A stretch of DNA of 64,000 bases from a virus: IMG/VR virus record IMGVR_UViG_3300024344_000004, positions 237 through 64,236 of that record; one strand, 5' to 3'. A program made the position numbers and the translations under genes. Shown here piece after piece: positions 9,035 through 52,967 of the stretch (position 1 is the stretch's first letter; the number at the start of each line of letters is the position of its first letter). Below the pieces are notes generated by a model. The model worked only from the letters and a program-made list of their open reading frames with translations. It had not been told where the DNA came from and searched no databases.

Positions 9035-12000
9035 CTAAGAGTTAATCAACTCCGTATTTGCATCTAAATCTCTTGTAAGTCTTACATCCCTATCGTCTGC
9101 GGTATCAGCATCTAACTGTTGAGCGTGGTCAATTGTAGGGAAATATTGATGTATGTCTCCAGTACAATTTATAACCTGACCTGTAACCTTTAATTCTTCG
9201 TTTGTAACATCTAAGTTTTCTATTTTACCTACGACTGAATAGTTATTACCTGAAAAGAAACCAGACTTTGCTGCTACTCCAGTAATTGTAGCTCCGGGAC
9301 CTGCTGTAAATGTTCTTCCAGTATAGTCTCCTGTCAGCCCATTTGTATGAGAAAATATTAAACTACCTGCGTCTATATTGAATGTAGTATTTGCATAGTG
9401 TATTGAACGTGGAGTTGTTAATGTTTGATTTTTTAAATCGAACCCTTCACCACTACTTATCGCAAAATATCCTGTACAAGTTATATCTCCAGTAGTTAAT
9501 AAATCATTGTGTTGTGTAATTAAATATTGGTAAGTACCACCGGGCATATCTGTAGAGCTAGGCCAATAAGTAATATATAAACCTGATAAATTTGCTCCCG
9601 CAGTGTGTGAACCGGTACCGTAGAATGTTATATCTGCATTATTTATATCGGTCAGAGTTCCTCCACCGTGTGTCAATAAATTATTAATTCGTGGTCTTCT
9701 TTCAGAACTACCTACACTGTTTATAGTTGTAGTTTTACCAGATGCAGCAACCTTAACGTTGTAATAGTCTGTAGATGTATCAGATATAGCCCATTCGCCA
9801 TCACCAGTAAAATCAAGAGTAGAAGTACCCATAGTAAATGTTCCTGCTCCTACCCAAGTTACACTATTTACAAGAGTTCCATTATTACTTCCAACTTCAT
9901 CATCAACATCTGTGCCTGTTCCTTCATCAAACTCGTAAGCTATTGCACAGTCTGTATTAGACGCTAAATTAGCATAGGTAGCAAACATATTAGCTCTCAG
10001 TTCGGATTGTGTTCTTTCATCAGTCCATATTCTTAACATAGCAAGCTCCCCCTCAAAAATTGATTGACCTGTTCTTATGTTTGTAGAACCATCTTGTCTA
10101 TTAACTCCAAAGTCAGGGAAAGCACCTGAAGTAGCTAAGGATACTCCGCTACCTAATTCAGTTTGTCCTTCCAGTTTACCATTTATGTAAAGTTTAACAT
10201 CACCGCCTGCTCCTGTGCAGACTATAGCAACGTGACTCCATTTTCCAGTAGGGCACGTTACAGTTATACTTTTATTATTTTCGTGTGAGTAAAATGTTAA
10301 ATTGTTTGAAGTAGTTTGATAAAGTTGCCACCTATTAGCTACACTTGCTTTGTAACCATTTATGACACCTCTACTATTAGCGTTAGTATTAGCGTCTGCA
10401 TACATCCAAAATTCAATTGTAGCATCTCCAGTTAGATTAACTAAATCATAAGGTACATCTAAAGCGTTTCCTGCTCCAGAAGGACTATCGCCGCCATCAG
10501 GGAATGACAAAGCACTCTTACCAATAAGACCACCACTCATAGTTAAATCTCCTGTTGCTGTAACTGTTGATGAATTACCATCAAGTGTTCCACCAGTAGC
10601 AACTTGAATATTATTAAATGTAGTATCGTGAAGCACATCTAAATCTCCTGAACCAATCAAACAAGTCCCAAAGACATTTTGACCTGCCCAAGTATCAAAT
10701 GCCCCACCATTAAAGAAAGCCGTATTCCATCCTCCGCCAGTAGCTCCCCAATAAATATTTCCTGAACCTGTTAATATTAAATCACTTGCACCAGAAATAT
10801 TCCTTGTTGTTCCTGTGGTATCTATATTATTTAGAACTGCTAATGATTTGTTACCTCCATCTGTTAAACTACCTATAATATCTAATTTACCACTTGTTTC
10901 AATCCTCTGTCCATTCAAATCCAATTCTGCTCCACTACTTACTGTTACGGCATCAAACTCTGCATCTCCTCCTAGCTTTATGTTAGTAGTTCCCATAGTT
11001 AAAGTGCCATCCCAATTGGTATCTGTAAGATTTAAATATGCTGTAGCACCGCCAGTGTCTCCTGATGCTCCACTAATACTACCGTTGTAATCTATTAATG
11101 CAGGAAGAGTAGGCCCACCATTACCAGTAATATGTGTTTGACCGTTTGTTCCTAAATTTAAAGCGTCATTTATTTCAAACTCACCAGCTCTTACTCCTGC
11201 TTTACCAATGTAAATATGACCGTCATTGTTAAGATACCAAGTTTGACCTGCTTTAGTTTGTAATTTATTTTCTACAGTGTATTTCTCATAAGAATCTACA
11301 TAACCGGAACCATCTTGTGTAAGATTATAAAAATGAGTCCCTGTTGATGCCGTGCCTCCTCGTAGGATAGTATTGACACCACCCATTTTAACTGTTCCAT
11401 CGTTGTGAACAAATGAAGTCGTTGGGTCTGTGCCATTGTTATCAAAGGTACCAGTAATAGTAGTAGTTCCGCTTGTTGCTACAAATGTTCCTCCACTTTC
11501 TGTTGTAAGTGAATTGAATGAATAAGCTCCTGTCTGGTTTGTTACACCTAATGTCCCCCCATCTTCAATAGTTACACCCCCTGTTACAGTCAATTCGGAA
11601 TTATTATAGTCATACCCGTGTAGTGTTCCTTCTTCGATTGTTAGGTCTCCAGCTATTGTGGTATTACCATTGTATTGTATTACACCACTTCCATCTTCAT
11701 TGACTATTAAATTATTAAGTCCAACACCGCTTGAAGGAATTAAATCTAAAAGTTTGTCTCCAGTTACAGAAGTATCTATTTTGACAGTTCCACTATTGTG
11801 GGTAAAAAGTCCTGCTATTTGTATTATATAATTAGAACTATTCTTGTTAGTAATAGTAGTAGTTCCTTGTGTTGCTTCATAAGTTCCATCTCCTCCAATT
11901 GTAAGACTTCCAAAAGTTGCTGTTTTAGTACTACTTGCACTAAATTTTAAATTACTTACTTCTGAATCACTACCTACATCTACTTTTCCTACTACTTCTA

Positions 12001-31832: not shown

Positions 31833-32130
31833 TATATAAAGGTTACTGTTCCCAAACTGAGGAGTGCTATATAGAGCTTAGTATTGTTATTAATAGTAGC
31901 TTACCTATTATATCTATATATAGCTATATAATGACTTTCAAAATTTCACTCGATTTGTTTAAAGGGGTAGTCAAAGAAAATAGACGATGTGCCTTATAAT
32001 TTTAGACGGGGGGCTGAGATACTGAGAGACTACGCGAGAAGCTGAGAATATGAGCCTTAACCGGTGTTCTTTTTGGAGCTATAGATTAGAGAGCTAAGCA
32101 CGGATTGACCTAAAATCTTTATAAGTAGGT
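31833..32130. promoter_or_regulatory. Divergent promoter region (minus TATA 31833-31840; plus TATA about 32118-32125) with AT-rich core
   Basis: Coding-strand switch; two outward TATA boxes, each about 20-25 nt from an ATG. Confidence 0.7.
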
Positions 32131-32145
32131 TGCTATTCTCACATT

Positions 32146-32358
32146 ATGGTAAAAAACCATTTATCCGACAGCGAGTTAATCCAAATAGGATTTGAAGAGG
32201 ACACTATAAGCGGTGACCTCTATAGAGACGAAATGTCTAAAGACATCGAGATTTTTTGTGAACCATGTTTTGACCTTTTTAAAGAAAAAGTCGAAGCATC
32301 ACACGAAAGCCATAATGTAGAAATGTGTTATGATTGTTATATGGAGTTCAATGAATAA
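32146..32358 (+). CDS. Small acidic CxxC protein
   Basis: CEPC...CYDC; leaderless after TATA. Confidence 0.6.
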   Translation: MVKNHLSDSELIQIGFEEDTISGDLYRDEMSKDIEIFCEPCFDLFKEKVEASHESHNVEMCYDCYMEFNE

Positions 32359-32686
32359 TCAAAAGTATTTTGTGTATCGATTAGCCCAACAATCAGAAAA
32401 GACTTCATATCATTTTGTAGGTGCTGACTTCGGCAGTGAAGCCACTAAGGAAGCCGTGTATTACGGTATCACCTCAGACCCTCAAAGCCGTCTATCTAAG
32501 CACCGACCTAAAAAGGGTCAAGATATCAGCCTAATAGTTATGGCTGAATTTGAAAATGTTTTTGAGGGCTTAGCTCATGAAGCTAACTTAGTTTGGGAGC
32601 ATATCAAGAAATACGGTAAAGAACCAAAGTTTCAAGGTATGGCCGGTATAGGTAACAAAGGTTATACTTACGGGGGTAACAAGTAA
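32351..32686 (+). CDS. GIY-YIG-like nuclease domain protein
   Basis: YFVY...YYGITSDPQSRLSKH...E pattern. Confidence 0.65.
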   Translation: MNNQKYFVYRLAQQSEKTSYHFVGADFGSEATKEAVYYGITSDPQSRLSKHRPKKGQDISLIVMAEFENVFEGLAHEANLVWEHIKKYGKEPKFQGMAGIGNKGYTYGGNK

Positions 32687-32754
32687 ACTGATAGGTGACC
32701 TTAGCTCTCCGGAGCTAGGGCACTAAATATCAAATACTGATATAGGAAAAAAAT

Positions 32755-33339
32755 ATGAACGTAAAAACATATATGAAAAGGGCATACGCAACAACGGACA
32801 TGAATAGGGCAAACTATCATGAATCGAACGCATTACACCATTTAATGGGGCAATTAATGTATCTCTCAGATACTGCCGGCATGAAGGGTCATGAATTGAA
32901 TAAATACGGTCGTCATGTAATCGAGCGATTACAAACCATCGTTAAAGAATTCGAGACAGGTAAAAACGAAGGAATCAATACAAAGGGAGGTGAATAAGTG
33001 AAATTCGAAATAGAATTAAATAAGTATGATATCGACCAAATGAATAAAAATCGATATGGACATGATGATGTGATAACTTATGGCTATATGTTAGACATAC
33101 TACATAACATCGTCGACCAAATACACGACCAACAATAAAGGCCGTGTGGGGGGTATGGGAGGGCTCCGGCCCTCTCAACCTATACCTAATACATGGAGGT
33201 AACTAAAATGGATAACAAAACATCAATAGCTGTAATTAGTGCATTGAAATATAAACTTCAAAACGAAGATTGTAAAATCAATTTACCAAAAGCAACTTAT
33301 GCAAAAGCATTAAGAAATAGTCTTATCAGACTAAGATAA
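32755..33339 (+). CDS. Three small hypothetical ORFs (32755-32997, 32998-33138, 33208-33339)
   Basis: Co-oriented; GGAGG(T) SD before the second and third. Confidence 0.55.
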
Positions 33340-33370
33340 ATATCTAAGGCCCTTAAATACGAGGGATTTT

Positions 33371-33442
33371 AACCTGCGTAGGTGAGAACCTGCGTGGGTG
33401 AGAAACAGCATGAGTGAGAAACAGCATGAGTGAGAAAGTGAG
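33371..33442 (+). repeat. Tandem 16-bp repeats ending in GTGAG
   Basis: aacctgcgtaggtgag, aacctgcgtgggtgag, aaacagcatgagtgag x2, then aaagtgag. Confidence 0.9.
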
Positions 33443-33443
33443 A

Positions 33444-33474
33444 TTTTCCACTCGTGTGAAAAAACCTTTATATA
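33444..33474 (+). promoter_or_regulatory. Palindrome TTTTCCAC-N4-GTGAAAA + BRE-TATA, copy 1
   Basis: ttttccactcgtgtgaaaaaacctttatata; ATG at 33496. Confidence 0.85.
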
Positions 33475-33495
33475 GGGTAGTGTTCTTGGTATATT

Positions 33496-33618
33496 ATGAG
33501 CAGAGGAGAACCATTTGGCAGTTGCGAGGACTGCGGGCTTGATGAGGTCGAACTATTCGGCGGACTATGTGAAGATTGCGAGTGTGAGATGTTTGCAACA
33601 TTCTGGACAGGAGACTGA
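33496..33618 (+). CDS. 40-aa Zn-finger microprotein
   Basis: MSRGEPFGSCEDCGLDEVELFGGLCEDCECEMFATFWTGD; leaderless. Confidence 0.7.
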   Translation: MSRGEPFGSCEDCGLDEVELFGGLCEDCECEMFATFWTGD

Positions 33619-33654
33619 GAGAAACCCTTATATAGGGTCACTCTATGGTATAGT

Positions 33655-33771
33655 ATGGCAAAACACCCGTGGGCGCATTTATCTTTAAAACAGATTTATG
33701 CCAATACAGAAAAACTAAAAAGAATACGCAAAGAAATGGAAAAGGAATTAGAAGGTGAATTAACTATTTAG
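33655..33771 (+). CDS. 38-aa hypothetical protein with own promoter
   Basis: aaacccttatatagg about 20 nt upstream; MAKHPWAHLSLKQIY... Confidence 0.65.
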   Translation: MAKHPWAHLSLKQIYANTEKLKRIRKEMEKELEGELTI

Positions 33772-33780
33772 ATTCCATGA

Positions 33781-33999
33781 GTCCCCAACACTGTAAGATG
33801 TGGCCGTAGGAGTAGGTGCACCATTTGGAAGTGGCAAGTGTATGAGTGAGTTTAATAAACTTTCCAGCATGGGGACAAGAGGAGACGCCTGACAAGTGAT
33901 GGCGAAGGGCCAGTGGCATAAGTCCGCCCGAGCGTTAAACGTAGCGACGCATCTCCAGCCCAGTGAGCCGGCCTACTACGGTGGGACAGCTGGGCGCCC
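33781..33999 (+). ncRNA. Candidate structured ncRNA A
   Basis: Stems GTCCCCA/TGGGGAC, GGAGACGC/GCATCTCC, GCCCAG/CTGGGC; crossing pairing 33804-33817 with 33971-33981. Confidence 0.6.
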
Positions 34000-34030
34000 T
34001 TTTCCACTCATGTGAAAAAACCTTTATATA
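34000..34030 (+). promoter_or_regulatory. Palindrome + BRE-TATA, copy 2
   Basis: ttttccactcatgtgaaaaaacctttatata; ATG at 34051. Confidence 0.85.
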
Positions 34031-34050
34031 GACACACCCGTTGGTAATAT

Positions 34051-34458
34051 ATGACTAGAAAACATTTTGTAGCAATAGCTCAGTTATTAGCCAAGCATGA
34101 CGCAGACCTTAACATGGTCCGAGACTTTGCCGGTATGTGTGCCGAACACAACCCACGCTTCGACAGAGAAACCTTTATAAAGGCCTGCTCAATGGAGTAA
34201 TATGAGCAAAATACAAGACATGAGAAACACCCACCGTTTCCGCAGAGTAGCACGCAGAACCATAACCAAAAACAAGATTGACTTAGGAGTCCATGAGCAA
34301 CTTATGGCTATCCGTTTGGGTCTTGCTGAGGATGTGAGAAATTGAAAAGCATCTTAGATATTTTAGATGACATGGTCATCTCTGGTATAAGCGAAGCAGG
34401 GGACTACATTGTTCTCTGCGGGTGTGAAGACGCACCTTGCTGTGGGTGCAACCTGTGA
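34051..34458 (+). CDS. Three coupled micro-ORFs (34051-34200 MTRKHFVAIA...NPRFDRETF; 34202-34345; 34342-34458 ending CGCEDAPCCGC)
   Basis: Translated by hand; short or overlapping junctions. Confidence 0.6.
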
Positions 34459-34576
34459 GCTACGACAAACCACTCAAACGCAGTTGGAAAAAAGAAACAA
34501 ATAAGATTATCAAAAAGGCCAGCCAATAGCTCGTTTGTTTTTCGGACACCTCCGGGGGGTAGGGCCTCCCCCCACC

Positions 34577-34607
34577 TTTTCCACTTGCGTGAAAAAACCT
34601 TTATATA
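34577..34607 (+). promoter_or_regulatory. Palindrome + BRE-TATA, copy 3 (preceded by a G6/C6 hairpin)
   Basis: ttttccacttgcgtgaaaaaacctttatata; ATG at 34628. Confidence 0.85.
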
Positions 34608-34627
34608 GACATACTCATTAGTATATT

Positions 34628-34864
34628 ATGAGCAAAAACTTATGTGGTAAGACACGCAAGACTGATGACCCTTATGAGGTCTGGACTGGCCCACGTGGCT
34701 TTGAATGGAGAGTATTAAAAAAATACCAGAACGCTGAGAACGAAGCAAAGAATCCTCACGCCAGATGGTTCTGTGCTGTTAAGTCAGACTTTACCTATGG
34801 TTCTTTTGAACTTGGTGATGTGTATGTCAGTGAGATTAAGAGCATGGGGGAAAAGCTTATATAG
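34628..34864 (+). CDS. Small conserved-looking phage protein (PYEVW...WRVLKKYQ...RWFCAVKS...ELGDVY)
   Basis: 78 aa, leaderless. Confidence 0.7.
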   Translation: MSKNLCGKTRKTDDPYEVWTGPRGFEWRVLKKYQNAENEAKNPHARWFCAVKSDFTYGSFELGDVYVSEIKSMGEKLI

Positions 34865-34886
34865 GGATACCCTATTGGTTATTATC

Positions 34887-35294
34887 GAGTGGGGAGCCCA
34901 AATTACCCCCACTCACTTATGGTTATCGGCCATAACACGTGACCTGAACTTAAAGACAAGAATAGACCATACGCCAACATACGACAAGCAATAACAAACT
35001 CAAGCTGAACAAGTGCTGACCAATCCCTTTCCGGTCGATGCGCATCTTAGTTGATTAACGACGTGTAGCTAAAATTTTGTATCACCTTTTGCCTCACTGA
35101 TTCCCTGTTATAAACTTAAGCGTATACAGCTATGAAGGAATTCTCTTTATCTTTTAGTGTCTCCGTCTCCTGACCGTTCGCGGTTTGACTCGGAGCAGGT
35201 CACACCCTAATGGACAAAACCTAGTTTGTCCTGTGGCAACCGCTCCTCAAGGTAGGCTTTAAATTCTAATTAGAGCCTTGGGTGAAGTTGCCAC
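34887..35294 (+). ncRNA. Candidate structured ncRNA B with its own promoter
   Basis: TATA 34857-34863; starts with GAGTGGGG/CCCCACTC stem; ends with GTGGCAAC/GTTGCCAC stem + T5; no credible ORF. Confidence 0.7.
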
Positions 35295-35295
35295 T

Positions 35296-35326
35296 TTTTC
35301 CACTCTTGTGAAAAAAGCTTTATATA
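35296..35326 (+). promoter_or_regulatory. Palindrome + BRE-TATA, copy 4
   Basis: ttttccactcttgtgaaaaaagctttatata; ATG at 35348. Confidence 0.85.
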
Positions 35327-35347
35327 GGGGTAGCCCCTTGGTAATAC

Positions 35348-35587
35348 ATGAGCCAAGCAACTCAGACTAAGACCAATCTTCCTTGGAAGAATGGAAGCAA
35401 GGAGGTCGACTACTACGTAGAAATCGGCACGACTCCGTATGGAAAATACGGATTATACAAAGAAATGATTCCTGTCGGCACAGGGAGCAGAGGAAGACAC
35501 ATGGAACTCGCTCGTGAGATTCGTCTGTCCAATCCAGAAATCTTTGAGGATTTAGAACTAAGACAAGTTGTCAGTAGGAGCAGATAA
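35348..35587 (+). CDS. Hypothetical protein
   Basis: 79 aa, leaderless. Confidence 0.65.
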   Translation: MSQATQTKTNLPWKNGSKEVDYYVEIGTTPYGKYGLYKEMIPVGTGSRGRHMELAREIRLSNPEIFEDLELRQVVSRSR

Positions 35588-35616
35588 GCTTATAAAGGCA
35601 CACCTATTGGTATAGT

Positions 35617-35949
35617 ATGACTAAAGCAAAGATGGATTACCTTTGGGCTCCAAAGGATGAAAAACTCGTGAGTTCTTTATTGGACTCGCTGGGATTTGCT
35701 CGTGTTGGTGTATCTCAACGATACCCAACCGGAGTAAAGTATGACTGCCTTGTAGCTATATGTGATGTTATCGGTTCAAACGATAAAACAGCATCTATGG
35801 TTGCATCTCGCACTCATGAACTGCAATCCAAACGGAAAGCAACAGGTAAGGCACCTTCAGTTGATTCAGTCGTTTCTGCACTTGCATCTGGTAAGATGTC
35901 AGAAGCTGATTTGAAGAAAGCAATGAAGAAAGCTGGACTATTGAAATAG
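35617..35949 (+). CDS. Hypothetical protein with own promoter
   Basis: 110 aa; aagcttataaagg about 20 nt upstream. Confidence 0.65.
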   Translation: MTKAKMDYLWAPKDEKLVSSLLDSLGFARVGVSQRYPTGVKYDCLVAICDVIGSNDKTASMVASRTHELQSKRKATGKAPSVDSVVSALASGKMSEADLKKAMKKAGLLK

Positions 35950-35965
35950 ATAGATAATAAGCACC

Positions 35966-36260
35966 TGAGCAAGTCAGAAAACTGCTCACCTTATATTTAT
36001 GGAAGTAGCTCTTCCGTAATCGGGTATGGCCGAACAAGTCCGCCACGGACTAAGGCACAGGACTGCGCAAACCGAGAAGCGACTGCTGGAGGAATGCAAA
36101 ACTGGTATGGGTTCTACTATGTAGTGGCATAAACCCATTGGAGGTATACATTAAATCCTCCTACCCATCCTTACATTGACGCCCCTTGACTTCCGTTATC
36201 GAATGCAAAAACATCGAGGAAGGAATGCTTTACCACCGGTGGTATATAAGTCAGGGGCTC
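35966..36260 (+). ncRNA. Candidate structured ncRNA C
   Basis: Serial hairpins TGAGC/GCTCA, GGAAG/CTTCC, AGTCC/GGACT, ATGGGTT/AACCCAT, GGAGG/CCTCC and terminal GCCCCTTGACTT/AAGTCAGGGGC before a T-run. Confidence 0.6.
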
Positions 36261-36268
36261 ATCTCTTT

Positions 36269-36286
36269 TTTTCCACTCAAGTGAAA
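36269..36286 (+). promoter_or_regulatory. Palindrome copy 5, not followed by a TATA box
   Basis: ttttccactcaagtgaaa. Confidence 0.6.
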
Positions 36287-36299
36287 CTTTTTCAAGATG

Positions 36300-36790
36300 C
36301 CTCAGCTCAACAAACCCCTCCTCCTCAGTTCGCTCTACAGAGCTCGTGAGAAATCGTTATCGGGCAGTGAGAAACTGCGCTCTCAGTTCAGGTTCAAACC
36401 AGAACCAATGGTCAGTAGGGCCAGATGAGAAAATAGTCTCAGTTAAGCACAAGCTCTACTAAGATTTTCGGTAGGCTACAATGAGAAAATGCTTAATGGA
36501 GCTTAGTTCGACACGTAATGTGTTCGTGCTCGAACTGTAGTAGTAATAGTTATCAGCCTATATTATCTCAGTTAAGCTTTATTATAATGCTCTACTACGC
36601 AAAGCTCTACTGAGTAATTAAGCTTTACTTAGTTAAGCTTTACTAAGCTCTTTACTTACAGCAATAATATGCATAACTAAGCTATATCTTAATATAGTTA
36701 ATATAGGGAACACGAACTATATAAAGTTTTGCATGAAAAAGCACCCCGTTTTTTATCTCAGTATAAAATCCGTGCGGGGCTCTCAGTCCA
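36300..36790. repeat. Non-coding region dense in CTCAG, TGAGAAA and AAGCT(C/T)TAC short repeats
   Basis: tctcagtt x3, (g/a)tgagaaa x4, aagctctac/aagctttac several times; AT-rich right part. Confidence 0.7.
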
Positions 36791-36832
36791 CAAAGGGAAA
36801 CGCTTATATAGGGGTATATTGATGTAGATACG

Positions 36833-37508
36833 ATGACTATGACCGACATCGACACATTAGCAATACAACTAAAAAGCATGACTGCCAAACAGTTACAACA
36901 ACTGTTAAGTGCAACCCCGAACCGAGACGGTTCCGCAATCAAAGCCCGTAAGATACGTGCAACTGAGACATACTTCAGGAATGTAAAGAACAATGGATTA
37001 TATCCACATAACTTTGAGTCCTTCCCTCAGTTCAGAGAGGTCTTACCTTGAGTGACGTAATCGTTAAGTTCAATAACTACATGACTCAGCACACAGACAA
37101 AGTCCCTTTGTTAAGTGTTCAGTCAACTGATGATAAACGTTTCACAGTGCTGAGGGAATTATTAAATTCCGTCTTCGATGATGTAGAAGACAATGCTTGG
37201 TCAGTATCAGTGAACTTAGGAAAGTTCGTAGATGCCCTCAGCACAATGGAACAAAAAGATATAGATACTATATCACGAACAGTGAAGAAGTATCAAGTCA
37301 AAGGCACTTCGAGTGGTATCTCAGGTGAGAGAACCTATGGATATGACCGAAGCCGTGTTGACCGTAAGATGATTAGAAGAAGGAGAGCCAACTGATGAAC
37401 TGCGTAGATTGTGGTGAATACAGTTGGACTGATAATGGTGGACATGAAATAAATAAATCATGTTGTGAACACTGTTTAGTAAATGATTATATAACAGGTG
37501 AACTATGA
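36833..37508 (+). CDS. Three small early ORFs (36833-37051, 37048-37395, 37395-37508 Zn-finger)
   Basis: Promoter aaacgcttatatagg near 36800; overlapping junctions; last ORF MNCVDCGE...CCEHC. Confidence 0.6.
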
Positions 37509-46436: not shown

Positions 46437-46643
46437 ATGGCAGAAAAAAATAGCTTAGAACTAACAGCCGGATTGTTCCGGAACACTGATAAGAACGGAA
46501 ACATCTACTACTCAGGTAAGTCCGAAGGTGGAGATGAATATGTTATGTTCAGGAATACCTATTGGAAAGAAGGAAGTAACAAACCATACTTCAGACTAAT
46601 GAAAAGAACTGATGGAGCATCTACTCCAACAGTGGAGGACTAA
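46437..46643 (+). CDS. Small beta protein, possibly ssDNA-binding (DUF736-like)
   Basis: GLFRNTDKNGNIYYSG...VMFRN...KPYFRL pattern; GGAGG SD. Confidence 0.45.
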   Translation: MAEKNSLELTAGLFRNTDKNGNIYYSGKSEGGDEYVMFRNTYWKEGSNKPYFRLMKRTDGASTPTVED

Positions 46644-46644
46644 A

Positions 46645-47016
46645 ATGTATGGAAGAGATGCAGACCGTATGATGGATATGTGGTTGGACTTACTATCACA
46701 GATAGAACAAGTTCCCTCAGGCCGTCATGCCCTATCTACACTAAGTAGAAAGGATGTCTCAGTAAATGTAGAGAATGGCACCATAACAATCACAGCTGAA
46801 TTAGCTGGTTTGGATAAAGAACAGGTTGATGTGGAAGTCAGTAGTAGAACAGTCACTATCGTAGCCAACTCAGAGAGAAAGAACTTCAAATGGGAAGAGA
46901 CTTTTCTATTTGAGTTAGACCCAGAGTCTACAAAAGCTACTATGGTGAATGGTATACTAGACTTAGTCATAGAAAAGAAAGTGAAGACATCAGCTAAGAA
47001 AGTAGAGATAGAATGA
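46645..47016 (+). CDS. Small heat-shock protein (HSP20/alpha-crystallin)
   Basis: ITAELAGLDKEQVDVEV...DPESTKATMVNGILDL. Confidence 0.88.
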   Translation: MYGRDADRMMDMWLDLLSQIEQVPSGRHALSTLSRKDVSVNVENGTITITAELAGLDKEQVDVEVSSRTVTIVANSERKNFKWEETFLFELDPESTKATMVNGILDLVIEKKVKTSAKKVEIE

Positions 47017-47684
47017 GTAGAGACACAGATTGGTGCCAATCTACTAAAAGCGAGAGAGTTTGGTTATTAGACTCAATGACTGCTTTAGGACAATTTGCAT
47101 TCATAGCCCCTATACACAGGGTAAAACATTGGAACCCCACTACCAAGAAAAGAAATAAATGCTGGGCAAAAGAAGGTGAGTGTGTGTTTTGTAAGAATAG
47201 CACACCTAAGATAAATGAATTCACCTATGGGTTATACATATCGTCAGATAAGACTATTAAATATCTCACGCTTACAGTAGCATCTCATACACAAGCACAA
47301 CGTATTTTTTCTTCTTTGATAGAGAAAGGCATCAATCCTACTGATGTAGTCTTTGAATTTTCTTTTGGAAAAGTTAAGACTTCTTTCGGTAAGAGTGTCA
47401 ATGGTTATCAGATAGAACAAACTGAGAACGAAGTATTCGTAGCTGAGAAGTTCAGACCAAGTCTAACTAACAGCGAAGAACAATCATATACATGGACTGT
47501 GCCAGAAGAGATAGTAGAGTATCTGAAAGATAAAGATGGAGAACCAATAACAATGATAGATTTATTTTTATTGATGAAAGAACAATTCCCAGCAATAGAA
47601 GAGAAAGAACTTAAAAAGTATGCAGTAAAGTTATGTGAACATAATGTTCTCAACTTATTAAATGCGAGGCAGAAATGGATTTGA
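47013..47684 (+). CDS. Putative Zn-binding single-strand DNA-binding protein
   Basis: H...C...CVFC plus beta-rich core; upstream of the helicase. Confidence 0.45.
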   Translation: MSRDTDWCQSTKSERVWLLDSMTALGQFAFIAPIHRVKHWNPTTKKRNKCWAKEGECVFCKNSTPKINEFTYGLYISSDKTIKYLTLTVASHTQAQRIFSSLIEKGINPTDVVFEFSFGKVKTSFGKSVNGYQIEQTENEVFVAEKFRPSLTNSEEQSYTWTVPEEIVEYLKDKDGEPITMIDLFLLMKEQFPAIEEKELKKYAVKLCEHNVLNLLNARQKWI

Positions 47685-47763: not shown

Positions 47764-49236
47764 ATGAAAAAATATGAAATATACGATTTGCTAAGATATT
47801 TTCACAATGCAAAGAAAAAAGACGGAACACTTTTCCCTATACTAGGAGAGGATTCGTTAGCTCTAACTACAAGTCTATCTTACTTGTTAGAAGATACTAA
47901 CTTCTGTATTAAAGCATACAGTGGAACAGGTAAGACTGTATTGATGGAAGCTGTGGCAAACCTACTTCCAGAGGAGTATGTCTACTCAGTAGAACATATG
48001 TCAGAGACAGCAATATGGTATGATGAGGATAAAATCAACAAAGCTAGATTTGTTTTTATTCCAGAAGCACAAAAGATACCAGAGGGTGTCATGGAAATCA
48101 TTAAAACATGGGCAGACGGGCGAACAGCCCAACGTAAAAAGACAGATGTTACTATCAAGATGGCAGTAACACAGTGGTTAAAACCTAAATATGTTTTGAT
48201 GGCAGTAGCAGTAGAGAATGATAAAGGTTCAGCTATGTTTGATGCTGAGTTAGAACGTAGATGTATGATTATGCATACAAACCCTACAGTCAAACAGACA
48301 GAAAGAGTTATCAAACATAAACTTTTACATTCAGCTTCACCAAAAGCCTCTATGTCTTCAATGTCAGATAAAGAAATAAAAGATTTAAAGAAACACATAC
48401 TAACTACATTGAGAGAAAGAGACGAAGATGATGCGACTGTATTAAAGAATCCATGCGCCCCATTTCTATTTGACGCAATACCATCAGCATTCCCTGTATC
48501 ACGGTCGAAGGTTCAGTATCTATTGAAGTTGATTAATGCTATAGCAAGGTTTTATCCAGATGAGATAGTTAAAGTCAAACAAGATGGTATACAATATGGA
48601 CTAGTATCACCTAAACATAACTGGCTCGGACTGAGAATATATCTTAACTCATTTGTAGAAGAATGCTTACATATGCCAAGTCATGGAACAGACATACTTA
48701 AACTATTTCCCGAAACTAGATTAGATAGGTTTGGTTTTGCAGATAGTGAGACAGTTAAGATGTCAGAGAATGAATTGAAAAAGGCTGCTAAATCAGCTGG
48801 TCTACCATTTACCAAATTAAGACCAGTTATAGCAGGTTTAATGATGACAGGGTTCTTAGAGTGTGATGAAGAAGGAAGTAAAAAACTTTACTATAAGAGC
48901 CCACTCATTACAGAACCAGTATCAAAAATAAATTGGAGTGATTTAATTGAAGAAACGAAAGAGTTTATACGAAAAGAGTGGCCTAAAGTATCTGATGAAT
49001 ACATTGGGCGCAGTTGTAGCAGTATCAGGATTGTTGACCCGTTTAGTGGGGACAACATTGAACTGGGTGCGAGAGCAGAGACAGCGGTAGAAGTTGACAC
49101 TGGTGATTATCCGTCAGTGTTCAAGTCTTCTAGTGACGCTAAGATTAAAGACTACGAGTCTTTTCTACTAAATGCAGAGGGAGATTACAATGACGAAGAA
49201 GACAAAGCAGTCAGAGAATACTTTCAGAAGAAGTAG
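47764..49236 (+). CDS. MCM-like AAA+ P-loop NTPase/replicative helicase
   Basis: AYSGTGKT Walker A, FIPEAQK variant Walker B, ELERR arginine finger. Confidence 0.7.
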   Translation: MKKYEIYDLLRYFHNAKKKDGTLFPILGEDSLALTTSLSYLLEDTNFCIKAYSGTGKTVLMEAVANLLPEEYVYSVEHMSETAIWYDEDKINKARFVFIPEAQKIPEGVMEIIKTWADGRTAQRKKTDVTIKMAVTQWLKPKYVLMAVAVENDKGSAMFDAELERRCMIMHTNPTVKQTERVIKHKLLHSASPKASMSSMSDKEIKDLKKHILTTLRERDEDDATVLKNPCAPFLFDAIPSAFPVSRSKVQYLLKLINAIARFYPDEIVKVKQDGIQYGLVSPKHNWLGLRIYLNSFVEECLHMPSHGTDILKLFPETRLDRFGFADSETVKMSENELKKAAKSAGLPFTKLRPVIAGLMMTGFLECDEEGSKKLYYKSPLITEPVSKINWSDLIEETKEFIRKEWPKVSDEYIGRSCSSIRIVDPFSGDNIELGARAETAVEVDTGDYPSVFKSSSDAKIKDYESFLLNAEGDYNDEEDKAVREYFQKK

Positions 49237-49504
49237 ACTTCCTAAGCGAGATGAGATGTTTGCAGTAGTCATAGAGATGTCAGGGGGTTCTAGAATGAGA
49301 GCCCTCTGTGCAGACAGTAAAACCCGCATGATTAGAATCGGTGGTAAACTGAAGAAAAGAATGTGGTGTAGAGAGAATGATTTAATTATAGTTAAGCCTT
49401 GGGTTATACAGAGTGACCAAAAGGCAGACTTAGTTTATAGGTATCTCCCTACTGAGAGAAAGAATATAAGTAAAAAAATACCAGAGGAGTTAAACATATG
49501 GTGA
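49190..49504 (+). CDS. eif1a: Archaeal translation initiation factor aIF-1A (eIF1A)
   Basis: RLPKR.EMFAVV.EMSGGSRMRALC.D.KTRMIRIGGKLKKRMW.RE.DLIIVKPW..Q.DQKADLVYRY. Confidence 0.93.
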   Translation: MTKKTKQSENTFRRSRLPKRDEMFAVVIEMSGGSRMRALCADSKTRMIRIGGKLKKRMWCRENDLIIVKPWVIQSDQKADLVYRYLPTERKNISKKIPEELNIW

Positions 49505-49818
49505 AAGGAATAGAAGCTACCTATTTGGATTTTACTCGCAAGACAGCGAAATATCCAAAGCGTAGAGAGAAAGAATACCTAATGATAGGTTTGATGAATG
49601 AGGCCGGAGAAGTCGGTGGTGCATTCAAAAAAGAAATACGAGATAGAGTAGACAACACAGAACTCATTATAGATGAGATGGGTGATGTTTTATGGTATCT
49701 CCAGAGATTGTGTGATGTTTATGATATAAAGTTATCAGAACTCATGGTCAACAATATGGACAAACTATTTAATAGAATGTCACCGGAAGAAGCTGAAGCA
49801 TTCAGAGAAGGTCAATGA
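49498..49818 (+). CDS. MazG-like nucleotide pyrophosphohydrolase
   Basis: GLMNEAGEVGGAFKK...DEMGDVLWY. Confidence 0.88.
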   Translation: MVKGIEATYLDFTRKTAKYPKRREKEYLMIGLMNEAGEVGGAFKKEIRDRVDNTELIIDEMGDVLWYLQRLCDVYDIKLSELMVNNMDKLFNRMSPEEAEAFREGQ

Positions 49819-50081
49819 CCAAAATACAAACAGCTGCATCTTCCAACCCCTCACTAACAGTGAGCACAGAAGATGAGAAAGAACAATGGATTCAAATACT
49901 TACAGCAGCTGCTAACTACCATTGGGATATGTCAGGTCAATTTGAACCTGATATTAAAACCTCAGACCAGAGTGGTGAGATGGAACAGGTAGCTAAGGTT
50001 CACAGAGGGTGGGCCAGAGCTATCCAAGAATCAGTTCAATTGATAAGATTTTGGAAAGCTGAGAAGGAAGAAGAAGAATGA
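49815..50081 (+). CDS. Hypothetical protein
   Basis: 88 aa coupled ORF. Confidence 0.55.
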   Translation: MTKIQTAASSNPSLTVSTEDEKEQWIQILTAAANYHWDMSGQFEPDIKTSDQSGEMEQVAKVHRGWARAIQESVQLIRFWKAEKEEEE

Positions 50082-52312
50082 AAGTTCCCCTCATAGCTAG
50101 TATTAACAAACGCACAATCAACTTAACAGATAAATCTTTGATGGTCAAGATGTATAGGAATGGTGAAGTCGACGCAGTTAAGTCACCTTACACACCATAC
50201 TTCTATACTGAGGACGAAACGGGAGAAACGAAGAAACTCGTTGGTTCAGACAAAACAGTGAACCTAAAGAAACACACCTACACACCGGGTAGAGACCACG
50301 TTCCTACCCACGCACTCTTTGATGGTGGAAGGGAAGCATTACTCGAAAGGTTATGCATAGAACATCCTAAGTTCTTTGCAGACTATCCTAACGACAAAGA
50401 TGTAAAATGCCTAGTGTTCGATATAGAAACACACTCCCCAGATGGGACATTTCCTTTTGGAGAAAAGTATCCCATTGTTGCCATTGGCATTGTAACTTCT
50501 ACTGGAGAGCGCAAAGTGTTCTTATGGGATAATGAGAAAGAAGATGATAAACAACTATTATGGGACTTCGCTAATTATATACAAGATTATGACCCTGACA
50601 TTATTACGGGGTGGAATCTTGTGGGTTATGATATTCCACAGATTCTCCACAGGGTTCGTTACAATCATATAAATGAGTCTCAGTATAAGAAACACCTGAA
50701 CCGAGATGGTTCGGACTGGGGGTATGAACCACCCAAAGACAACAGAGAACTTAAGATGAACGCTGGTGGTAGAGTCATACTAGACCTACTACGATGGGCT
50801 AGATTAGATTATAGTCTATCAGGATTACCACGCGGTCTCAAGCAAGTATCACAAGCATTCGGACTAGACCCTATCGAGCTCGACTTCGCACACAAAACTC
50901 TGATGGACTACTCACTACAAGAAATCGAAGACTACGTTCTGTCTGATGTGGACTGCACAATGTTTATGTATAACCACTACTTTCCACAAATACAATACGT
51001 AGCAGAGGTTCTCTGTGTCCCCTTAGCGACCTATATAAACGCCCCCAGTAGCTACATTACGAAAATTCTACAGGGCAGGTCTCTCTATGAGCAGGGCATA
51101 GTAGCGCTTGATAGAAATAGAGAGCGACATCCAGATATATTTAGATTTGATAAAGGTAATTATCAAGCTGCACATATCCAATTGTATAAACCGGGCTTCG
51201 AAGCTAAGAACTTCAAGATTGATTTCAGTTCGTATTATCCCTCTATAGCGATGGCTCTCAACTTAGGGCCTGATACGACTAGAATCGTAGGCTATGACGA
51301 CTATACACCAGACATAGAGTTTAAGGATGGAATCCTCTATGTTCCCGATAATAAAGTAGATAAAAGATTGATGGTCAAGATTGATAGAAGTAAGAACAGT
51401 TGTTTGTATGATATGTGTTCTACATTTAAAGAGATGCGTAAACCTTATAAACTTGGAAAGACTAAAGAGGACAAGAGTAAATCCGATGCTCTTAAAATAA
51501 TGGTGAATACATTCTATGGTGCAAATGCTAATCCTTATATTTCTTACGGCGACATGGCTGTGGGTATTACTATCACCGCGATGGCAAGGTTCCTCATTCT
51601 TTCAGCGGTCGATATCATCCGTGGCAGATATGGAAAAGATGCTGTGGTATATGTTCATACAGATGGGATTAATACTAATGTGGATGTGGACGAAAGATGG
51701 TTAACTAATAGGCTACGTAAACTTTTAGATTATAAATTAAATAGTCAGTGTGAATCAGTTCATATAGATATGGATAAAGATGAATACCTCGAAGGAGTAT
51801 GGATTCAGGTTGGTAATTATATATTACGTAACTTGGATGGTAGTGTTACGAAGCATGGAAGCACGTTTAAATCTAAGAGCCGCTCTATATTCTATAATAA
51901 GGTGTTAGATAGGTTATCCGACGCTCGGTTAAATAACACCGTTACAAATTCATTTGTAGATAAATTATATAACTTAGATGGATATGTATTAGAAGATTTT
52001 ATTATGCGTAGGTCAACTAATAGAGGGTATGATGATTATAAATCAGATACCGATTTAACAGTTCAACTAATGAATCTAGGTATACAAATAGGAATGGAAC
52101 CAGCAGAAGGAACTACTTACTTCTATGCTAAGACAAAGGAAGGTTATCGTCTTAAAGAACAAATCAAATCAGTTGATGAAATAGATATTACATACTATTG
52201 GGACACAATATCTAACCTATTAATTAAATTTAATTTAAAAGATTATGTAAAGAAGAAGCCACCTTTAACATTATTAGATAAAAAACAACAATCACTAGCG
52301 GAGTGGATATAA
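50078..52312 (+). CDS. polB: Family B DNA polymerase
   Basis: DIETH (ExoI), WNLVGYD (ExoII), YVLSD (ExoIII), DFSSYYPS, KIMVNTFYG, YVHTDG. Confidence 0.96.
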   Translation: MKVPLIASINKRTINLTDKSLMVKMYRNGEVDAVKSPYTPYFYTEDETGETKKLVGSDKTVNLKKHTYTPGRDHVPTHALFDGGREALLERLCIEHPKFFADYPNDKDVKCLVFDIETHSPDGTFPFGEKYPIVAIGIVTSTGERKVFLWDNEKEDDKQLLWDFANYIQDYDPDIITGWNLVGYDIPQILHRVRYNHINESQYKKHLNRDGSDWGYEPPKDNRELKMNAGGRVILDLLRWARLDYSLSGLPRGLKQVSQAFGLDPIELDFAHKTLMDYSLQEIEDYVLSDVDCTMFMYNHYFPQIQYVAEVLCVPLATYINAPSSYITKILQGRSLYEQGIVALDRNRERHPDIFRFDKGNYQAAHIQLYKPGFEAKNFKIDFSSYYPSIAMALNLGPDTTRIVGYDDYTPDIEFKDGILYVPDNKVDKRLMVKIDRSKNSCLYDMCSTFKEMRKPYKLGKTKEDKSKSDALKIMVNTFYGANANPYISYGDMAVGITITAMARFLILSAVDIIRGRYGKDAVVYVHTDGINTNVDVDERWLTNRLRKLLDYKLNSQCESVHIDMDKDEYLEGVWIQVGNYILRNLDGSVTKHGSTFKSKSRSIFYNKVLDRLSDARLNNTVTNSFVDKLYNLDGYVLEDFIMRRSTNRGYDDYKSDTDLTVQLMNLGIQIGMEPAEGTTYFYAKTKEGYRLKEQIKSVDEIDITYYWDTISNLLIKFNLKDYVKKKPPLTLLDKKQQSLAEWI

Positions 52313-52772: not shown

Positions 52773-52967
52773 ATGGATGAAAAAGAAAGTAAACCGTTGT
52801 CAGCCTTTTTGTCTGACGCAGAAGTCAAAGTGGTTTGGCGTGAAGAAGAAAGAACTAAAGTAGGAAGAGGAATGATAACGAATGATGATGAAAATTTTGT
52901 ATACCTTACTGGAGAAAAGGGAACCGTTATTGTTAATAAAAGAGATATTATTGCTATAAAACAATAG
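52773..52967 (+). CDS. Sm/LSm-like small beta protein
   Basis: VKVVW...RGMITNDDENFVYL...VIVNKRDIIAIK; own promoter and 5-prime hairpin 52737-52760. Confidence 0.5.
   Translation: MDEKESKPLSAFLSDAEVKVVWREEERTKVGRGMITNDDENFVYLTGEKGTVIVNKRDIIAIKQ

Follow-up and report, generated by a model that had tools for sequence, protein, structure and literature searches.

Giant viruses (Klosneuvirinae, Bodo saltans virus) encode eIF1A, a protein of the same a/eIF1A family as the viral copy described here but set among eukaryotic hosts, megabase genomes and scanning initiation. Huge bacteriophages, with genomes of >200 kb and large translation gene sets, carry bacterial IF1 together with IF3, which have been proposed to redirect translation (Al-Shayeb 2020, PMC7162821); as here, these are tailed viruses equipped with a universal A-site initiation factor. 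Haloarchaeal tailed viruses, archaeal Caudoviricetes that like this virus have translation genes, carry L21e, Trm112 and tRNAs (Liu 2021, PMC8651126), and no translation initiation factor appears in the text or supplements of that study. Magroviruses, the marine archaeal head-tail viruses of 65-100 kb, hold PolB, AEP primase and MCM in a replication block, and every genome also has a sliding clamp, RadA and a clamp loader (Philosof 2017, PMC5434244). The magrovirus and marine-virus literature examined, Vik 2017 included, makes no mention of aIF1A, and in the papers searched we found no earlier report of this factor in an archaeal virus.

Here we report an intact aIF1A gene in the replication block of a tailed virus. 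IF1 in huge phages and eIF1A in giant viruses are already known; aIF1A in an archaeal virus appears to be new. The window, the whole 64,000-nucleotide stretch analysed out of a 69,348-bp record, encodes an MCP, portal, TerL and tape measure, and the Caudoviricetes markers (major head protein, portal, terminase large subunit) are all present within it. Unlike the huge phages, this virus family has the archaeal-eukaryal form of the factor as a near-core gene in 65-81 kb genomes, with no aIF1/SUI1 in five complete genomes and no tRNAs in the window. Like Magrovirales, it has PolB, an AEP primase and an MCM-like ATPase. No PCNA or chaperonin was detected in it, and its host signs point to Marine Group III (MGIII); PCNA_N was not found in the five complete genomes by our searches, and for magroviruses profile-profile searches had been needed (Philosof 2017). 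A search of a phage collection, with Magrovirales exemplars outside it, gave no MCP match and PolB matches of only 21-24%. The features of the locus are as follows.

47764..49236, + strand: MCM-like AAA+ ATPase, putative replicative helicase (phrog_12057); its last 47 nt overlap aIF1A
49176..49183, + strand: Shine-Dalgarno-like (SD) motif of aIF1A (AGAGGGAG), GGAG at -10..-7, inside the ATPase tail
49190..49504, + strand: aIF1A; five-strand OB fold with a helix, preceded by a short Lys-rich N-tail and followed by a C-terminal helical subdomain; acidic extension absent
49484..49489, + strand: SD-like GAGGAG of MazG, encoded by conserved P-E-E codons near the aIF1A C-terminus
49498..49818, + strand: MazG-like pyrophosphatase; its first 7 nt overlap aIF1A
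50078..52312, + strand: family B DNA polymerase (PolB), used as an independent marker for prevalence and for dN/dS comparison

The sequence-only reading had placed the factor at these aIF1A coordinates, in a replication operon and overlapping both neighbouring genes, and all of this holds: it sits in the replication block, and the overlaps are 47 nt with the ATPase and 7 nt with MazG. The gene had been called near-complete; the ORF is in fact complete, intact and full-length at 104 aa. An alternative start at 49172 was ruled out by homologue length and SD spacing. An SD-like motif precedes aIF1A in about 37 of the 40 viral rows, and MazG is absent from this position in basal viral lineages that still have aIF1A. 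Since the upstream ATPase (490 aa) has a Walker A motif and its model finds MCM subunits as best fold matches, with low TM-scores, the label of helicase is reasonable.

Several further features of this block were seen. The ATPase motif AEGDY (window 49163-49189) and the aIF1A ending PEELNIW (49481-49504) are both conserved, and part of that conservation may act at the RNA level because in each case the SD and the start codon of the following gene fall at the same place. Two conserved unannotated ORFs ahead of the helicase (46437-46643 and 47013-47684, both +), the second with a Cys/His cluster, are candidate ssDNA-binding proteins. Between relatives the Hsp20 gene at 46645-47016 (+) ranges from 24% to 92% identity independently of PolB, which suggests allele exchange. 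A 64-aa ORF at 52773-52967 (+), at 95-100% in close relatives, is one of the best-conserved genes of the block; it has no Pfam match, its Atlas neighbour is MM0924/DUF6897, and it looks Sm-like by eye, possibly an RNA chaperone.

The identification of aIF1A is supported by comparisons of sequence and fold. The protein scores 56.9 bits against Pfam eIF-1a (PF01176, cut-off 30.2) and 107.5 against the NCBIfam archaeal IF-1A model (PRK04012.1-3, NF003084; cut-off 91); with TIGR00523 it scores 88.9, below that model's own cut-off of 102.9. Its closest PDB sequences are archaeal aIF1A (1jt8, E 4e-23; 5jb3/4mno). An AF2 model (pLDDT 84) lies within an rmsd of 1.5-1.7 A of P. abyssi aIF1A, has archaeal aIF1A as its top Foldseek matches, and places helices at 52-57 and 87-92 in addition to five strands. 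The C-terminal helical subdomain that bacterial IF1 lacks is present in the model. Fold, subdomain and the conserved residues contacting rRNA and aIF5B are common to the viral copy and cellular archaeal aIF1A (P. abyssi, PDB 4MNO/7ZAI).

Near-invariant positions defined from 95 Thermoplasmatota aIF1A sequences were checked in the crown viral clade, which keeps G32, R35, C40, D42, R46, R49, I50, G52, K53, R57, W59, R61, D64, P70, W71, Q74, K78, D80, R84 and Y85. C40, D42 and W59 are invariant across viral copies. The first two form the C-x-D loop (beta2-beta3), which in aIF1A contacts aIF5B domain IV (Kazan 2022, PMC9226500), and W59 is the counterpart of P. abyssi W60, which lies at the edge of the A/P codons (PMC7005279). 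Judged by this alignment, the predicted ribosome- and aIF5B-contact residues are retained. At four sites conserved in hosts the crown clade differs (P51G, F73V/I, T86L, Q89E), which could mean an altered function.

The tails are where the viral copies and the cellular proteins part. MGII copies (named MED-G36 and Poseidoniaceae) have acidic C-tails of 39-137 aa and MGIII-order copies an acidic N-extension, whereas the viral copies have neither; their net charge is +9 to +18, against +6/+7 for the MGIII type and -27/-52 for the MGII type. The comparison of tails and contact residues proposed from the sequence thus gives contacts kept and host acidic tails absent. The Lys-rich N-tail may be partly incidental, since it is read in the +1 frame of the acidic tail of the ATPase. 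The very acidic MGII C-tail resembles the eukaryotic eIF1A C-tail, which archaeal aIF1A is said to lack. In the MGIII order the cellular gene has a leaderless look, a conserved GTG and the acidic N-extension, features that may reflect autoregulation like that of infC or eIF1.

A strongly basic OB fold, held in all carriers at a fixed position overlapping the helicase, might also be an exapted nucleic-acid binder (for ssDNA, or an RNA chaperone) serving the MCM-like helicase and PolB and not the ribosome. We consider this quite improbable: an SSB would not need the aIF5B-contact loop, W59 or the a/eIF1A-specific helical subdomain, all of which are kept, and the replication block also gathers unrelated middle genes (Hsp20, MazG, a glycosyltransferase, RNR).

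The gene is widespread in one virus family. A protein search found 328 homologues, the best 120 of them at 66-90% identity and mostly 103-108 aa long; automatic JGI annotation already names some. IMG/VR relatives were collected three ways (by aIF1A, by ATPase and by PolB), and among 47 distinct contigs whose sequence covers or reaches the locus, 40 carry aIF1A, always directly after the ATPase. Carriers extend down to 48% PolB identity, and five distant ones are near-complete viruses of 65-81 kb with the same MCP (56-59%). The remaining seven contigs, in two lineages, have no aIF1A at the locus, which makes the gene dispensable; on the PolB tree its presence changes state twice, and midpoint rooting reads these changes as two losses. 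Beyond this family we found no aIF1A among 50,697 GenBank phages and no PHROGs match. A host-agnostic motif scan of IMG/VR gave 39 matches, 34 in this family and five by chance in other frames, the scan being exact-match and so missing divergent copies, basal family members included. These searches bear out the expected rarity of such a factor in tailed viruses. When genome contigs were scanned, the only match was viral and had been placed in a MAG of Maricaulis. NZMJ01000097.1, which belongs to this virus family, is contamination in a Maricaulis bin and could mislead host prediction.

Selection has acted on aIF1A much as on its neighbours. Pairwise dN/dS, for unsaturated pairs outside the overlaps, is 0.05-0.15, compared with medians of 0.11 for PolB and 0.12 for the ATPase, and gives no sign of relaxed or accelerated evolution. 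In a phylogeny of the kind that the sequence-only reading had proposed, the viral copies form a single clade among Thermoplasmatota sequences (support 100/99, stem 0.77), nested in neither MGII, the Poseidoniales, nor MGIII; their identity to any cellular copy is only about 50-55%. As far as the tree can tell, a single old capture would fit. Neither donor is rejected by AU tests (p=0.29 for virus+MGIII, p=0.14 for virus+MGII).

Sporadic presence under relaxed selection had been named as the mark of a recent passive capture. What we find is one locus shared by 40 of 47 contigs and dN/dS of about 0.1, like that of PolB. To passive capture or host contamination we give practically no credence: no supporting point was found, and the identity to cellular copies, the 328 homologues, the purifying selection and the lack of the RIO1-KH neighbours seen at cellular aIF1A loci all refute it. 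Thermoplasmatota aIF1A heads a RIO1-KH operon, whereas the viral gene has an SD and ATG inside a replication operon.

One contig, IMGVR_UViG_3300037195_000659 (11424-11759), has a host-like aIF1A (RIPGKMKRRMWIR) that occupies the usual locus yet falls outside the viral clade. It is perhaps a later replacement or a second capture; the contig (L075), on which two different viruses lie back to back, may be chimeric.

Close relatives exchange alleles of aIF1A (for one PolB clade, AU p=0.005). Together with the long stem, the virus-specific surface changes and the adjoining MazG, this exchange could suggest a counter-defence role, either as a spare for a host aIF1A attacked by abortive infection or as a dominant-negative A-site blocker or decoy. 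Such a role is very improbable. Since PolB is in conflict with the ATPase tree as well, the exchange reflects general mosaicism; relaxed or accelerated evolution is not seen; and a blocker would stop late viral translation too. We know of no defence that targets aIF1A.

The presence of aIF1A supports an archaeal host, as had been proposed, and its affinities support, at the sequence level, one within or near Thermoplasmatota. In GTDB the class of candidate hosts comprises a large group and a 45-genome order, mostly with genomes of 0.7-1.6 Mb; we take the 45-genome order to be MGIII, the sister order of MGII, and one of its members is labelled 'Poseidoniales archaeon' by NCBI. An LPYxPxxE motif occurs in 37 of 39 MGIII and 5 of 6 basal viral sequences and in none of 27 MGII or 29 other Thermoplasmatota sequences. 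A GC content near 36% counts for MGIII, a TTTATA-type leaderless promoter is common to the virus and MGIII, and codon-use correlation is 0.91-0.94 with MGIII against -0.63 to 0.75 with MGII, a comparison confounded by GC. Hsp20 matches occur in 38 of 45 MGIII and 0 of 46 MGII genomes; because other Thermoplasmatota match equally, they argue only against MGII.

The earlier link to Poseidoniales, as host or donor, is therefore not supported, with the clade not nested in MGII and with motif, GC, codon use and promoter type all pointing to MGIII. On these sequence signals MGIII is probably the host, and its being more likely than Poseidoniales is unproven. No provirus or co-binned ATPase was found in 401 Poseidoniia genomes, and RNR was uninformative as a host signal. 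One MGIII-order MAG encodes a class II RNR 48% identical to the viral one (G036:C24:14298-16217), absent from 60 other Poseidoniia genomes; this MAG perhaps contains a co-binned virus.

Start signals divide the genome. Gene starts were chosen without using the SD, and the TATA window was set at -25..-31. Nearly all leaderless-looking genes lie in one block:

32000..37300, + strand: early block, with a TTTATA-type box 26-30 nt before the ATG

TATA boxes precede 7 of 13 early-block, 0 of 30 middle and 1 of 33 late genes, and SD motifs precede 8%, 53% and 64% of them, respectively, over a background of 13-14%. Among 319 middle genes of 11 relatives, 47% have an SD and 2% a TATA box. The genome thus changes cleanly from leaderless starts in its early genes to SD-led starts in the middle and late ones. 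The viral aIF1A gene is itself SD-led with an ATG start. In the MGIII order, by comparison, 34 of 36 aIF1A genes have a TATA box at about -28, and 32 of those start with GTG; start picking used the TATA box, and the GTG position is conserved and agrees with the deposited 135-aa product. The anti-SD GGATCACCTCC is present in 22 of the 45 candidate-host genomes.

The sequence-only reading had held that many viral genes look leaderless and that a viral aIF1A could bias initiation toward such mRNAs. The first point stands for the early block and fails for middle and late genes. To the second we attach very little credence. The early block does have promoters of the leaderless type, in 7/13 genes, but these genes are probably expressed before aIF1A is made, judging from gene order; by the same timing, the mRNAs present when it is made would be SD-led, coming from the SD-rich middle and late genes, and the aIF1A gene is itself SD-led. 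In S. solfataricus, moreover, aIF1A has no clear effect on initiation-complex toeprints, and none was observed on leaderless complexes (PMC11698992). A bias toward leaderless mRNA is unlikely, and any bias would run the opposite way.

That opposite direction is the basis of another explanation, in which a smaller and more basic viral aIF1A outcompetes that of the host at the A site and tilts initiation to SD-led viral mRNAs, away from leaderless or weak-SD host mRNAs. It draws on the charge difference, on the virus-specific substitutions and on the SD share of 53-64% in viral middle and late genes against 23% in MGIII-order genes run through the same pipeline (10% leaderless), where host start calls are noisy. 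Yet no role in SD recognition is known for aIF1A, the choice between mRNA classes depends on the 16S anti-SD and initiator tRNA (PMC7531240), and the Lys-rich N-tail may be an overlap by-product. We regard it as rather unlikely. Its fuller form, a deregulated basic aIF1A of an MGIII virus family that displaces the host factor and, at the early-to-late switch, redirects ribosomes to SD-led viral mRNAs, is unlikely.

Based on these observations, we favour, with a probability of about 0.6, a functional aIF1A that is produced alongside the replication genes and keeps SD-led viral initiation going independently of host control. The virus would produce it from the SD-led overlapping cistron, probably by translational coupling. 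Like cellular aIF1A, it would bind the A site on the 30S subunit, here that of the host, and work together with the host's aIF2, aIF1 and aIF5B, supporting aIF5B-dependent joining and adding initiation capacity for polycistronic, SD-led mRNAs of the middle and late viral genes. Because, relative to the version of the likely host, it has lost the acidic extension and exchanged a leaderless GTG for an SD and ATG, the viral factor is probably expressed free of the limits on its host counterpart. The idea that it replaces a host factor survives as replacement or supplement, with host aIF1A perhaps becoming limiting during infection.

Haloferax infected with HFTV1 maintains its own aIF1A, aIF1 and aIF5B as most translation genes fall (bioRxiv 10.64898/2026.09.13.751334), which, by analogy, would fit a demand for aIF1A. 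Extra copies may nevertheless add little, given the toeprint result in S. solfataricus (PMC11698992), and the virus supplies aIF1A alone, with neither aIF1 nor tRNAs, which counts against a supply role.

The role that aIF1A has on leadered as against leaderless mRNAs is a question raised in the literature (PMC7531240), and very little is known of how archaeal viruses take over translation. Hundreds of natural, soluble 104-aa variants are available in this family, in which host-conserved contacts are intact and host regulatory tails removed. The gene is also a marker of a large family of marine viruses that may infect Marine Group III, a group for which we found no described virus in the literature examined. 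An intact, trimmed aIF1A has long been kept by a whole family of small ocean archaeal viruses, most likely for translation late in infection.
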